Assembly (NCBI GenBank): GCA_016839605.1
Contig: JAEOTX010000222.1
Coordinates: 1-19,074, forward strand
Reading direction: 5' to 3'
Source: Candidatus Thorarchaeota archaeon
Lineage (GTDB): Archaea > Asgardarchaeota > Thorarchaeia > Thorarchaeales > Thorarchaeaceae
DNA: 19,074 nt
Shown piece by piece: positions 1-5,064 of this stretch. The translations under genes were made by a program, and so were the position numbers. The notes beneath the pieces are model-generated. The model was not told the origin of the DNA. It did not search any database and worked only from the letters and a program-made list of their open reading frames with translations. How positions within the stretch are numbered: the stretch's first letter is position 1; every line of letters starts with the position of its first letter.

Positions 1-1616
1 ACCACCATGCTGTCACTAAGGTAGTCAGCCATGAGAATTGAGTGCTCAACTACAAATGCGGTCTTCATATGAGTCTGAATCGTCCTACGGATCGCTCTGG
101 AACTTGCCATTCTCTGTTCAATGTCCAAGAAAGCGGAAGGCTCGTCAAATAGATAGATGTCTGCATCCTGAGCCAGAGTCCGCGCAATTGTCGCACGCTG
201 GAGCTCACCACCAGACAGCTCTGCCACGGTATGGTCGAGTAAATTCTCTAGCTCAAGCTTTCGTATCACTGAGCTATTGAAGTCCGCACTATCCATCGTT
301 GCGCCTCCAGCCTCACGAAGATACATCCTGACGCTTCCGGGGTAGTCTGCTTCAATGTATTGTGGCTTATAGGCTACTTTGAGATCGAAACCAGAGAGGG
401 TCTTGGTCGGAACTTCCCCCTCACTAGAGTCTAACTCACCTGCTAGCATCCTAACGAAGGTCGTCTTACCAATTCCGTTGGGCCCCAGAATACCAATAAT
501 CTGCCCCTTGGTCACTCTTCCACCCTTCACCTCGAGCGTGAAATCCTCAAACTCCTTTTTCAGATCGCCATACTCGACTAGGGTCTCCGAACCGCCGAAT
601 TCCACATCTTCTCCAGCCTGTCCTTTGAATGAGATAGCAGTGTCCCGGAAGCGCATGTTTTCATCTGGAATATATCCATCAAGGTAGATGTTGACGCCTA
701 CTCGAGTGCCGTGCGGATGCGATACAATGCCATAGGCACCAGGAGAGCCGTAGCATAAGCAAATCAAATCAGACACATAATCAAGGATAGAGAGGTCATG
801 TTCTACAACCACGACAGTCTTGCCTTGGTCAGAGAGATTTCGAATAGCTCGGGCCACTCTGAGCCGTTCACGCACGTCAAGGTATGCTGTAGGTTCGTCA
901 AAGAAGTAGATATCACCCTCGCGGACAATTGCAGCAGTCATGGCAACTCGTTGCAGCTCGCCTCCTGAGAGAAACTTGATTGGTCGGTCCCATATCTCAG
1001 TCAGGCTCATATCCTCTTTCAGGTCTTTGAGTCGTCCGGATGTGTCTGCGGCCTCGAGGAGTTCACTGATTGGCTTGTCTGCTACAGCCTTGACCTTAGG
1101 CAGGTCTGTTATGGTCTGAGGTTTATGAACGGGCACAATCTTGCCATCCTGAATACGTTCAAAGAAAGGCTGCAACTCTGAACCTCGATACTGTCTGATT
1201 ATATCATCCCACTCTGGAGGATTCTCTACGTTGCCAAGATTGGGCTTCAATTCACCTGCGAGTATTCTAATAGCAGTGGTCTTTCCGACTCCATTAGGAC
1301 CAATCAGCCCCAAGACCTGACCCTCTTTTGGAATGGGCATTCGGAAGAGTTGGAATCCGTTCACTCCATAGCGATGGCTTCCATCAGTATCAAGTTCCTC
1401 GGGAAGGTTGACAATGCTGATCACATGGTAAGGACATTTCTTCACGCAAATAGCTTCACCAGAGCAAAGAGCCTCCACTATTATGGGGGGCTTATTGGGG
1501 CCATCTGGAAATACGACTGTTTCATCACCTGTTCTGACTCGAGGGCAGAAACGTTGGCACTCATGAGTACAGTCCTTAGGCCTGCAACGGGAATGATCGA
1601 TTACAGCAATGCGCAT
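1..1616 (-). CDS. rli1: Ribosome recycling ATPase ABCE1/Rli1 (RNase L inhibitor homolog); 3' end truncated by the window edge
   Basis: Manual translation of parts of the frame from ATG at 1616: MRIAVIDHSRCRPKDCTHECQRFCPRVRTG...LCSGEAICVKKCPY (Fe-S domain); NBD1 GPNGVGKTT, LSGGELQR, FFDEPTAYLD, VVEHD; NBD2 GPNGIGKTT, LSGGELQR, LFDEPSAFLD, VVEHS. AGGTGA RBS about 10 nt upstream. Probably absent from the ORF track because no stop falls inside the window. Confidence 0.97.
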   Translation of the reverse strand, partial: MRIAVIDHSRCRPKDCTHECQRFCPRVRTGDETVVFPDGPNKPPIIVEALCSGEAICVKKCPYHVISIVNLPEELDTDGSHRYGVNGFQLFRMPIPKEGQVLGLIGPNGVGKTTAIRILAGELKPNLGNVENPPEWDDIIRQYRGSELQPFFERIQDGKIVPVHKPQTITDLPKVKAVADKPISELLEAADTSGRLKDLKEDMSLTEIWDRPIKFLSGGELQRVAMTAAIVREGDIYFFDEPTAYLDVRERLRVARAIRNLSDQGKTVVVVEHDLSILDYVSDLICLCYGSPGAYGIVSHPHGTRVGVNIYLDGYIPDENMRFRDTAISFKGQAGEDVEFGGSETLVEYGDLKKEFEDFTLEVKGGRVTKGQIIGILGPNGIGKTTFVRMLAGELDSSEGEVPTKTLSGFDLKVAYKPQYIEADYPGSVRMYLREAGGATMDSADFNSSVIRKLELENLLDHTVAELSGGELQRATIARTLAQDADIYLFDEPSAFLDIEQRMASSRAIRRTIQTHMKTAFVVEHSILMADYLSDSMV

Positions 1617-2076: not shown

Positions 2077-2691
2077 ATGGTGTCAAGCCTTCTTGTCATT
2101 GCATTTGTAATCCCGATAATCACCATTATCCAAATTCACCCAGACGGAATAGACCTCCAACTCAACTATCGGCACACGCACTCCCTCCAACAGGGAAGTT
2201 GGGATTCTGACACTAGCATCGCCTATTCTAACTACGAAATCTCATCAGTGGCGAAGCTAGACAACCTCAGTCTTGTCCTGATTGATATGGAGGTAAGAGA
2301 ATTTCCAGTTTGGGTCAATGTCAGTTCTTGGAGTCTAGGTGATACTGTCCAAATTGGCGACCAGATTGTTACGATTATGGGCGACTCCGAGAGAAATGAA
2401 TTACAATGCTGGGTTGGGCAGCTTCCGAATGGCACGGATGTGTATTATTCAAAGGAATTCGGTGTTTTTCTTGGCACATATTACCATGATTGGGACTGGT
2501 CAGGAACGATGTATATCTACTCTGAAACGTACAAGATTGAACTCACTTACCAGAATCTCATGGATCTCTATAGAGTAGAATATGAGCTCAGCTTTGACGC
2601 AATTTTACTCTCCTTTATTATCTTGGAGTTGGCAGCTATCATTTGGCTGATTGAAAAGGGTCGAGGAGGCGTGTTACTCCGAAAGTCTTAA
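2077..2691 (+). CDS. Hypothetical membrane-anchored/surface protein
   Basis: 204 aa; hydrophobic N-terminal segment (LLVIAFVIPIITII), beta-rich aromatic middle, C-terminal TM helix (AILLSFIILELAAIIWLI) followed by a basic tail. Confidence 0.75.
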   Translation: MVSSLLVIAFVIPIITIIQIHPDGIDLQLNYRHTHSLQQGSWDSDTSIAYSNYEISSVAKLDNLSLVLIDMEVREFPVWVNVSSWSLGDTVQIGDQIVTIMGDSERNELQCWVGQLPNGTDVYYSKEFGVFLGTYYHDWDWSGTMYIYSETYKIELTYQNLMDLYRVEYELSFDAILLSFIILELAAIIWLIEKGRGGVLLRKS

Positions 2692-2692
2692 G
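2680..2692 (+). promoter_or_regulatory. BRE/TATA promoter for the box C/D sRNA, overlapping the upstream stop codon
   Basis: CGAAAG-T-CTTAAG lies about 25 nt upstream of 2716, the predicted 5' end of the sRNA terminal stem. Confidence 0.55.
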
Positions 2693-2715
2693 CAAATTCA
2701 ATGATGGCTAATATT

Positions 2716-2788
2716 GTGGAATGATGATGAAGTAGGGATGGTGAGCGTCTCATCAACGTGATGACCCACTAAACCGCAGTCTGACCAC
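2716..2788 (+). ncRNA. Box C/D 2'-O-methylation guide sRNA
   Basis: Terminal stem GTGG(2716-2719)/CCAC(2785-2788); box C ATGATGA 2721-2727 with the 3-nt K-turn bulge; D' GTGA 2741-2744; C' GTGATGA 2758-2764; box D CTGA 2781-2784; two guides of 13 and 16 nt; intergenic, 73 nt. Confidence 0.82.
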
Positions 2789-2873
2789 TAATCATATCCC
2801 CGTTGCATAACAACATCGAAATCAGAACAATGAAGCAAAACAAACAACCTTACTCGGAGACCAATGCATCTTG

Positions 2874-3281
2874 ATGTCCATCGACTGTAATCATTTTTGC
2901 CCCGATGTGAGGATATGCTGCCAAGAAACTGAAATGACCCTTACTCGAGCCGATGCTAAAAGAATCAATGCTCTTGGCTATTCAACAAGTGACTACTCCC
3001 ATAGAGTAGATGGTGGCTTCTGTGAACTGAGGAATGTCGACGGTCATTGTTATTTCTATGACCAGTCCTCAAAAGAATGCAAGATCTACGAAGCTAGACC
3101 AGAAGGTTGCCGATGGTATCCAGTCGTGTACCATTATAAAAAACGCAAGTGTCTTGGCGATGGTGATTGTCCTGCGTCACCATCTCTGACAAGGATCAAC
3201 ATTAGAAAAGTCTGTCACAAGGTGAGAACACTAGTAGAGGAACTTAAGAGGGAGGCCACTCATGGTGAGAGCCCTTGCTGA
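2874..3281 (+). CDS. YkgJ/UPF0153 family cysteine-cluster (Fe-S or Zn) protein
   Basis: CNHFC..ICC, CYFYD..ECKIYEARPEGCRWYP motif. ATG at 2874; the track uses TTG 2871. Confidence 0.9.
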   Translation: MSIDCNHFCPDVRICCQETEMTLTRADAKRINALGYSTSDYSHRVDGGFCELRNVDGHCYFYDQSSKECKIYEARPEGCRWYPVVYHYKKRKCLGDGDCPASPSLTRINIRKVCHKVRTLVEELKREATHGESPC

Positions 3282-4119
3282 TCTTCACACACACTCTGCC
3301 CTCTCTGATGGCACTGATTCACCTACTGAATTGGTCAGGTTGGCAGACGAGTTAAATCTTGGCGGAATTGCTCTGACTGATCATGATACAATCAGAGGGC
3401 TCAGAGAGTTCATGGAGGCTAAAGCATCTCCCGACCTGTCAAGAGTATCTGGCTTGGAACTTAGTGCGGACTATGATGGCCAAGAGGTCCACATTCTGGG
3501 GTATTTTGTCCCTCTAGAGTCAAAGAAACTGGATGGCAAACTTGAGGACCTCAGAAATCGGAGACAATACAAGTTCTCTAAGATGGTTGACAAGCTCCAC
3601 AATCTAGGCATTGAATTGGAGCAAGGTGAGATAGGGGACATCCTAGTAGGAGTAGAGAGCCCCGGACGACCTCATCTCGCATCGCTGCTTGTAAAGAAGG
3701 AAATAGTCAGAACCACAGAAGAGGCATTTGACCTTTATCTAGGAGAGGGAAAACCAGCATTCGTAGAGAAGAAGAGAATGCATGCTTTCAAAGCAATCGA
3801 TCTTCTAAAATCAGTGGGAGCAGTCCCAGTCGTTGCACATCCATTGACTGTGAAGGTGCCTGACTTGCAGGAGTTCCTAGAAGGACTTGCTAAAGCTGGG
3901 ATTCTGGGTGTTGAGGTTGAATATGACTACATACCCGTTGGATTAGAAGCCAGCTTGGATGAGGTGAAGAGGGTCACACAAGACCTAGGCCTCATAGAAA
4001 CAGGTGGCAGTGACTACCACGGAAACACTTGGATGGCTAGTATTGGAAGCACCACTGTGCCTGTAGAAACCATTGACGCTCTCAAATCAGCAGCGAATAC
4101 GTTGAATACACAAGCCTAA
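3262..4119 (+). CDS. PHP-domain metal-dependent phosphoesterase/nuclease (YciV/TrpH/RNase AM-like)
   Basis: DLHTHS..SDG, TDHDT, GLELS, HILGY, GRPHLA, AHP, GGSDYHG motifs; 285 aa; overlaps the YkgJ stop by 20 nt. Confidence 0.93.
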   Translation: MVRALADLHTHSALSDGTDSPTELVRLADELNLGGIALTDHDTIRGLREFMEAKASPDLSRVSGLELSADYDGQEVHILGYFVPLESKKLDGKLEDLRNRRQYKFSKMVDKLHNLGIELEQGEIGDILVGVESPGRPHLASLLVKKEIVRTTEEAFDLYLGEGKPAFVEKKRMHAFKAIDLLKSVGAVPVVAHPLTVKVPDLQEFLEGLAKAGILGVEVEYDYIPVGLEASLDEVKRVTQDLGLIETGGSDYHGNTWMASIGSTTVPVETIDALKSAANTLNTQA

Positions 4120-4146: not shown

Positions 4147-5064
4147 GTGGTTGACCAATTGAGAGTTATTGATGCTCACGTGCATACTTGGACTAGGGAA
4201 ATTATCAGCCAGAAGGACATCGAGGCTCGTCGGATTGCAGCAGAACGAGAAGGCATAGAGCCTCAATTGGACTCCCCCATTGAAACTCTGCAAGCAGCTA
4301 TGAACGAAGCAGATATTGAAAGAGCAGTCATCCTTCCAATTGATAGCGGTCTAAACCAAGAAATGCCTTTGACTATGAAAGAAAAGACCGATTGGCATGC
4401 TGATGAAGTGGATGGTAATTCTAATCTGCTCACCTTCGTGGGACTCGATCCTCGGAGGGGAAAAGAAGGACTGGAGGAGTTGGAGCGTGCTATCAAGGAG
4501 AAGAAATGTGGCGGATGGAAGATGTATCCTCCAAATGGGTTCTATCCGGATAATGAGGAGTTCTATCCTTACTATGAGTTATGTTCAGAGCTGGATGTGC
4601 CTATAGTAATTCATCAAGGATTCACCTCGCGATTCAAACATATCAAATACGGCAGGCCAGTTCATGTAGATAGCGTAGCCGTAGATTTTCCCAATCTGAA
4701 GATAGTCTTGGCTCATGTAGGGGTACCCTGGGTAGACGAGGCTTTGTCAATTGCATCAAAGAACCCCAATGTTTCCGTTGATGTTTCAGGCTGGCAGATA
4801 TTTGCATCCAGGACTCCTGATAGAGTCTTCAGTATGATTGCAGATGCCAAGTTGGTGCGTGTGTTTCCGAATCGAGTGATCTGGGGCAGCGACTTCCCAC
4901 TCTTCGAGCAGGCGATGCCACTGAAGGAATGGCGTGATTTCTTCGCCAATCTCCAGATGCCAGACTCATTGCTGGAGAAAGGATACCCCCAAGTATCTCA
5001 GGATGAGATTGAGGCTGTGATGTGGAAGAATGCCGCCCGCCTTTTCTTTGGTGAAAATCCATGA
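4147..5064 (+). CDS. Amidohydrolase_2 family TIM-barrel metal-dependent hydrolase
   Basis: IDAHVH, KMYP, IHQG, LAHVG, WGSDFP, NAARL motifs; GTG start. Confidence 0.92.
   Translation: MVDQLRVIDAHVHTWTREIISQKDIEARRIAAEREGIEPQLDSPIETLQAAMNEADIERAVILPIDSGLNQEMPLTMKEKTDWHADEVDGNSNLLTFVGLDPRRGKEGLEELERAIKEKKCGGWKMYPPNGFYPDNEEFYPYYELCSELDVPIVIHQGFTSRFKHIKYGRPVHVDSVAVDFPNLKIVLAHVGVPWVDEALSIASKNPNVSVDVSGWQIFASRTPDRVFSMIADAKLVRVFPNRVIWGSDFPLFEQAMPLKEWRDFFANLQMPDSLLEKGYPQVSQDEIEAVMWKNAARLFFGENP

Follow-up and report, generated by a model that had tools for sequence, protein, structure and literature searches.

A 73-nt Thorarchaeota RNA with the architecture of a dual-guide box C/D sRNA and two predicted target sites in 16S rRNA

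Positions 2716–2788 on the forward strand of a 19,074-nt stretch of DNA from a Thorarchaeota (Asgard) archaeon, hereafter the window, hold a 73-nt conserved small RNA element. We read this element as a dual-guide box C/D sRNA, folded around two kink-turns, that would guide 2'-O-methylation of 16S rRNA at positions 952 and 1382 (E. coli numbering), and we put the probability of that reading at about 0.85. Judged from its sequence, the element has all of the defining features of an archaeal C/D sRNA that can be tested at that level. The original prediction had proposed a box C/D guide sRNA with its own promoter at this place, and the proposal is borne out by the discrete conservation of the element, its covarying stems, guides that are complementary to 16S rRNA, a BRE/TATA motif upstream, and genes for L7Ae, Nop5 and fibrillarin. 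The element sits inside a 179-nt gap between a 204-aa ORF upstream (2077–2691) and a 136-aa ORF downstream (2871–3281). No ORF of at least 40 aa overlaps it on either strand, consistent with the earlier expectation that protein-centred annotation would miss an intergenic gene of this kind.

When window 2600–2900 was used as a blastn query against 40 relatives, the closest relatives aligned over much or all of it. In 11 further genomes, belonging to the same genus and to four other genera, the matches covered only query positions 118/119 to 187/190, corresponding to window 2717–2789, at 81–89% identity and with the flanks unaligned; in one more relative (G022) the match extended over ~15 nt of the upstream flank as well. 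A covariance model (R1) built from 12 homologues scored 58–100 bits in 15 of 26 sampled genomes of the family f1, with one copy per genome. Elsewhere in the phylum (151 genomes) it gave only three matches, at 22–24 bits, which we found unconvincing as homologues. The 15-mer TAAACCGCARTCTGA, which spans the D guide and box D, was present in exactly one copy in 55 of 85 other f1 genomes. Outside f1 it was found in 2 of 314 genomes, versus one match for a reversed control pattern, and both of these matches were rejected as homologues, being without a box C. From these searches the sRNA appears to be confined to one Thorarchaeota family, and it is lineage-specific within that family, since five f1 genera that gave no match have no box C at the syntenic site, where the downstream gene is retained.

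A strict genome-wide scan for the C/D architecture returned 25 candidates in the 3.08-Mb assembly, versus 10 in a reversed-sequence control, so the motif alone is no proof; the scan also yielded too few credible candidates to establish a typical sRNA length in this genome. Rfam, which the original prediction had named as a check, gave no family at the gathering threshold for the element. The best sub-threshold match was SNORD53_SNORD92 (16.3 bits versus a gathering score of 46, E = 1.2), and this weak match reflects the boxes only. A single-sequence minimum free energy fold was uninformative (z = -0.75), as expected for a protein-scaffolded RNA.

The secondary structure was examined across 40 distinct homologues, to which all position counts below refer. 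The terminal kink-turn would be formed by box C, box D and a GUGG/CCAC stem. In this stem, which is the C-stem of the motif, GUGG (2716–2719) pairs with CCAC (2785–2788), and three of the four pairs covary: terminal pair 1:85 is UA in 17 homologues, GC in nine, UG in four and AU in one, pair 2:84 is CG in 28 and UA in eight, and pair 3:83 is GC in 39 and CG in one. The 5' strand is followed by a 3-nt bulge, AAU (2720–2722), and by box C, AUGAUGA (2721–2727), which is invariant in 40/40 homologues. Box D, CUGA (2781–2784), is likewise found in 40/40, with CUGAC invariant, so that conservation of box C and box D in relatives, one of the checks set out beforehand, is complete. The termini have exact kink-turn spacing, with a 4-bp stem, a 3-nt bulge and GA on one side and, opposite, CUGA abutting the other stem strand. 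A 4-bp terminal stem with K-turn geometry had been predicted from the single sequence, and GUGG/CCAC, the AAU bulge and the covariation of the stem agree with it.

The internal motif required one correction. Among the boxes originally called, C, D' and D were retained, and C' was moved to another register. The box as called, GUGAUGA (2758–2764), implies a working GA at 2760–2761, and these two nucleotides (G2760 kept in 30/40 homologues, A2761 in 36/40) are replaced by CG, UA, AA, AG or UG in various homologues. They are less conserved than G2763 (40/40) and A2764 (37/40), the working GA, which lies 3 nt downstream. The functional C' (2760–2767) is made up of a GAU bulge (2760–2762; variants GAU, CGU, UAU, AAU, AGU, GAC and GAG), the sheared-pair GA (2763–2764), and the CCC of the non-canonical stem. 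Facing it is a non-consensus box D', GUGA (2741–2744), whose G2743 (32/40) and A2744 (37/40) take part in the sheared pairs at the internal kink-turn. Two further pairs, G2741:C2766 and G2740:C2767, are A-U and C-G, respectively, in G016, a compensatory change. The C-stem is an internal hairpin (2745–2759) in which GCG (2745–2747) pairs with CGU (2757–2759) across a 9-nt loop (2748–2756). Pair 2745:2759 is GC in 16 homologues, GU in 12 and AU in 11, with one mismatch, pair 2746:2758 is CG in 38 and UA in two, and pair 2747:2757 is invariant. Taken in order, GGUGA of D', the hairpin, GAU, GA and CCC of the shifted C' form a predicted complete kink-turn with its own C-stem, not a K-loop; closure by the 3-bp hairpin would take the place of the K-loop of archaeal sRNAs.

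Over the whole alignment, 96% of the cells are paired and seven of ten pairs change on both sides; the observed covariation was reached by 0/500 shuffles and all slid registers collapse. These figures come from an alignment that had been fitted to the model and is therefore biased towards the structure. Covariation shows two predicted kink-turns in this RNA, one terminal and one internal. With C' in the conserved register, 3 nt downstream of the original call, the spacers are 13 nt each (2728–2740 and 2768–2780), instead of the 13 and 16 nt that the original register implies. It is the 15-nt hairpin, and not any lengthening of the guides, that accounts for the unusual size of the RNA. It had been described as long for an archaeal sRNA and closer to eukaryotic snoRNA size: the first part holds, as 73 nt is just above the reported range of 50–70 nt (PMC7994747), and the second was overstated.

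As the 16S rRNA reference we used the gene of G011, a relative from the same genus. Its sRNA does not differ from that of the window, and its 16S rRNA equals the family consensus at both target sites. E. coli numbering was fixed by alignment to K-12 rrsH. The D' guide UGAAGUAGGGAUG (2728–2740, N+5 nucleotide G2736) forms 12 contiguous base pairs, two of them G-U, with CGUCCCUGCUUC at 16S 1378–1389 of G011. Searched against 16S and 23S rRNA together, only 2/1000 shuffled D' guides did as well. The D guide ACUAAACCGCAGU (2768–2780, N+5 nucleotide G2776) forms 10 base pairs, one of them G-U, with UUGCGGUUUA at 16S 949–958 of the family consensus. Here the same search was equalled by 11/1000 shuffles for the A variant of the guide and 54/1000 for the G variant, a significance that is modest on its own (P about 0.01–0.05). 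The target nucleotides under the N+5 rule are C1382 for the D' guide and position 952 for the D guide, the latter being C in Thorarchaeota and U in E. coli, and the N+5 pair is Watson-Crick at both sites. Most likely, the D guide directs Cm952 and the D' guide Cm1382 in 16S rRNA, as predicted from these pairings. Yeast and human 18S rRNA, to our knowledge, carry no 2'-O-methyl group at either of these positions.

Within the D guide, UAAACCGCA[A/G]U is invariant in 40/40 homologues. Its position 2 is A or G opposite U949, giving A-U or G-U, and the D' nucleotide facing G1385 is U or C. This variation at U949 and G1385 looks compatible with the predicted pairing, and is not strictly compensatory. 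A compensatory change at D-guide position 2 was considered as proof of the interaction and discarded, as G011 has the G guide opposite U949.

The sole 16S gene in the metagenome-assembled genome (MAG) of the window (locus L003, contig C82:4569–6699 of G000) was not used as the target reference, since this copy is probably chimeric and has a mismatch in each target. It is 2131 nt long, and its nt 1–945 are 95.8% identical to the congener G011. A 611-nt insert follows nt 945, at about E. coli position 975, and over the 3' 570 nt the identity with G011 is only 74%, compared with 79% for another Asgard family. The gene is either a chimeric assembly or carries an intron and a very divergent 3' exon. 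The mismatches are U957C and U1388C, one per site, leaving 8 bp with the D guide and 10 contiguous base pairs plus one more pair with the D' guide.

No 23S gene is present in the MAG, and in the 23S rRNA of two other genomes (G012 and G018) either guide reaches at most 8–9 bp, and the D' guide 8 bp, so that a large-subunit target was rejected. Among 13 tRNAs found by Aragorn in intron mode there was no convincing match to the guides, and a genome-wide guide search with G-U pairs allowed was far too permissive. In the 16S rRNA of the same two genomes (loci L027 in G012 and L026 in G018) we observed a 30-nt insertion between E. coli positions 1386 and 1387, within the D' target and ~14 nt after GAATACG. 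Its first bases, AGGGGACG, resemble the D' guide and are able to pair with the same 16S segment; the insertion may be a mini-intron or an expansion segment.

The two guides differ in how well they are kept. The D guide is unchanged throughout, and the D' guide has been replaced in genera g4, g24 and g54. This replacement would suit an RNA that works through its D guide alone, with a D' guide that is an orphan, or is aimed at 16S 597–606 or at a site in the large subunit, as would the non-consensus D', whose GA is missing in ~3–8 of the 40 homologues (G017, G023 and G016, for example, lose D'). The D' guide can also form 10–11 bp at a second 16S site, E. coli 597–606. However, the rarity among shuffles of a 12-bp match as good as that at 1378–1389 argues against a single guide, and so does retention of the D' core GYAGGGA in most of the 40 homologues, with replacement in few genera; an 8-bp best match in 23S rRNA speaks against a large-subunit target for D'. 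We give the single-guide alternative only a small chance, and continue with the RNA as a dual guide. In three genera, loci L072 (G357), L073 (G360) and L060/L078 (G042) keep the D guide next to an unrelated D' guide, for which 23S or 16S rRNA offers weak 10-bp candidates. These loci are apparent cases of one-sided guide turnover.

The proteins needed for such an RNA are encoded in the genome: adjacent fibrillarin (PF01269, 294.6 bits) and Nop5 (PF01798, 226.3 bits) genes make up an operon on contig C207, and an L7Ae gene (PF01248, 94.2 bits) is found on contig C101. Following the known mechanism of archaeal C/D sRNPs, L7Ae would bind both kink-turns, and a Nop5 dimer and two fibrillarins would assemble on the RNA. 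The D guide would then lie on 16S 949–958, in the 5' strand of helix 30, for 2'-O-methylation of C952, and the D' guide on 16S 1378–1389, running into the 3' strand of helix 28, for 2'-O-methylation of C1382. The targets are separated by ~430 nt, and both belong to the base of the 3' major domain, so that the RNA may in addition keep the two sites together while the rRNA folds.

This last possibility can be taken further, to an RNA that is mainly or only an rRNA-folding chaperone, clamping the 5' strand of helix 30 and the 3' strand of helix 28, with methylation secondary or absent. The distance between the targets, which lie on strands of neighbouring basal helices, would fit such a role, and both guides are kept together in most genera; the same role, that of a long-range folding chaperone, has been proposed for N. 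equitans sR15 and sR17 (Dennis et al., 2015; PMC4644070). An RNA acting only as a chaperone is harder to reconcile with its canonical spacers, with Watson-Crick pairs at N+5 of both sites, and with the presence of a fibrillarin gene. Several genera have swapped the D' guide and kept the D guide, so bridging is not obligatory, and in the one genome checked (G019) from the five genera without the sRNA, the D-guide target is unchanged. We therefore consider the chaperone alternative quite improbable and prefer a methylation guide.

Upstream of the element, a BRE-like CGAAAG and a TATA-like TCTTAAGC can be read from the sequence at 2680–2693 (+), overlapping the stop codon of the 204-aa ORF. Their centre is ~27–30 nt before 2716, in keeping with the BRE-TATA originally placed about 25 nt upstream, and the position is conserved across homologues. 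In 39 distinct upstream regions of homologues the A/T content reaches a maximum of 82–95% at -30 to -27 from the 5' stem, where GAAAGCATATTTAG, GTATTTAAC and GTATATAAC are examples of the motif, and GAAAG precedes the A/T peak in many of them; apart from this positionally conserved BRE/TATA the regions are unalignable. From the placement of the motif, transcription would start near 2713–2716.

A pair of genes (2871–4119, +) always lies 3' of the sRNA, coding for a CxxCxxCC-domain protein (PF03692, 2871/2874–3281) and a PHP-domain protein (PF02811, 3262–4119). By tblastn, both are directly downstream in nearly all of 31 homologous loci, the CxxCxxCC gene escaping detection at L060 only. The distance from the sRNA to the next ORF is 82 nt in the window and ~20–106 nt across the homologous loci, with 20–35 nt in several genera. 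Where it is 20–35 nt, the next ORF probably lacks a separate promoter, and in some relatives the sRNA is probably co-transcribed with the CxxCxxCC/PHP pair. There, the sRNA promoter would drive the next ORF too, and the sRNA would be trimmed from the leader of the mRNA.

L7Ae-bound K-turn leaders are known in archaea. The strict synteny with the downstream genes, and the co-transcription implied by a gap of 20–35 nt in several genera, are also what would be expected of a cis-acting kink-turn leader that regulates the CxxCxxCC/PHP operon via L7Ae and has no guide function in trans. We consider this highly improbable. Conservation within the element is highest in the two guide segments, both of them complementary to 16S rRNA, and two kink-turns with 13-nt spacers are the architecture of an sRNP, not of a simple operator. 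Furthermore, the genera without the element retain the downstream gene. Synteny is no argument against a guide function, since co-transcription of archaeal C/D sRNAs followed by processing has been documented (PMC7994747), and a trans-acting guide remains our reading of the locus.

In most relatives the sRNA faces a divergently transcribed gene for ABCE1/RLI, the ribosome-recycling ATPase. In the window this gene occupies 3–1616 (-), divergent from the sRNA region, and encodes Fer4_RLI and two ABC domains; the protein is 80–90% identical across the family. The 204-aa ORF (2077–2691, +) encodes a predicted membrane protein that matches no Pfam family; in the subgroup of the window and in genus g5, such a gene separates ABCE1 from the sRNA. 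Clear similarity to this protein (46–65% identity) is limited to the closest relatives of the window, some of which have a second tandem paralogue, and the homologues at the same place in g5 are weak (24–34% identity). Downstream of the CxxCxxCC/PHP pair are an Amidohydro_2 gene (4147–5064) and, 3' of it, a gene for a Mut7-C RNase-domain protein (PF01927, 5061–5540, +).

The RNA described here adds one more example to a well-known class and does not represent a new kind of RNA; as a single locus it is an ordinary member of that class. The box C/D guides of Asgard archaea have hardly been catalogued; our literature search found no paper cataloguing them, and the Rfam models miss the RNA at 2716–2788. 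The two predicted 16S positions offer concrete sites for methylation mapping, and the covariance model can be used for annotation. A documented internal kink-turn closed by a stem also bears on the passage from the compact archaeal sRNA to the looser design of the eukaryotic snoRNA. It is conceivable, if doubtful, that the stem-closed internal kink-turn is a general Asgard trait, intermediate between archaeal and eukaryotic forms, and that at the same time the RNA is mainly an assembly clamp on helices 30 and 28 derived from an mRNA leader. If both were true, the clamp would be freed from the leader of a transcript whose gene lies beside that for the ribosome-recycling factor ABCE1.

How does this RNA compare with guide RNAs from other organisms? 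It shares with the archaeal dual-guide C/D sRNAs, such as the sR families of Pyrococcus, Sulfolobus and Pyrobaculum (PMC7994747), the 5' box C, the 3' box D, the kink-turn and the short terminal stem, as well as internal C' and D' boxes, spacers of ~12–13 nt, the N+5 rule and rRNA targets in the conserved core. A further shared trait is that the gene lies right next to an ORF, with which it is probably co-transcribed in some genomes. In contrast to the internal motif of archaeal sRNAs, which has been described as a K-loop (PMC7994747), the internal kink-turn of the Thorarchaeota RNA has as its closing element a covarying hairpin of 3 bp and nine loop nucleotides. The Thorarchaeota RNA further differs in its non-consensus D' (GUGA) and C' (AUGACCC register), in its length of 73 nt, and in belonging to no Rfam family.

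The nearest parallel for the targets is found in N. equitans, where sR15 and sR17 are double guides on strands of 16S helices 30 and 28, with sites around G930/G1218 and A915/U1371 in the alignment numbering of that paper (PMC4644070). Equated through approximate numbering offsets alone, these sites would lie within a few nucleotides of E. coli 952 and 1382. Each N. equitans sRNA addresses both strands of one helix, whereas the Thorarchaeota sRNA addresses one strand of helix 30 and one of helix 28. In sequence, the N. equitans RNAs are not homologous to the RNA described here.

Eukaryotic snoRNAs with an internal D'-C' stem have degenerate C' and D' boxes that are joined by a stem-loop and are over 70 nt long, as here, and by this analogy the stem-closed C'/D' of the Thorarchaeota RNA resembles that of many eukaryotic snoRNAs. 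Unlike them, the Thorarchaeota RNA has an independent archaeal BRE/TATA, is not intronic, and carries short, symmetric guides of 13 nt.
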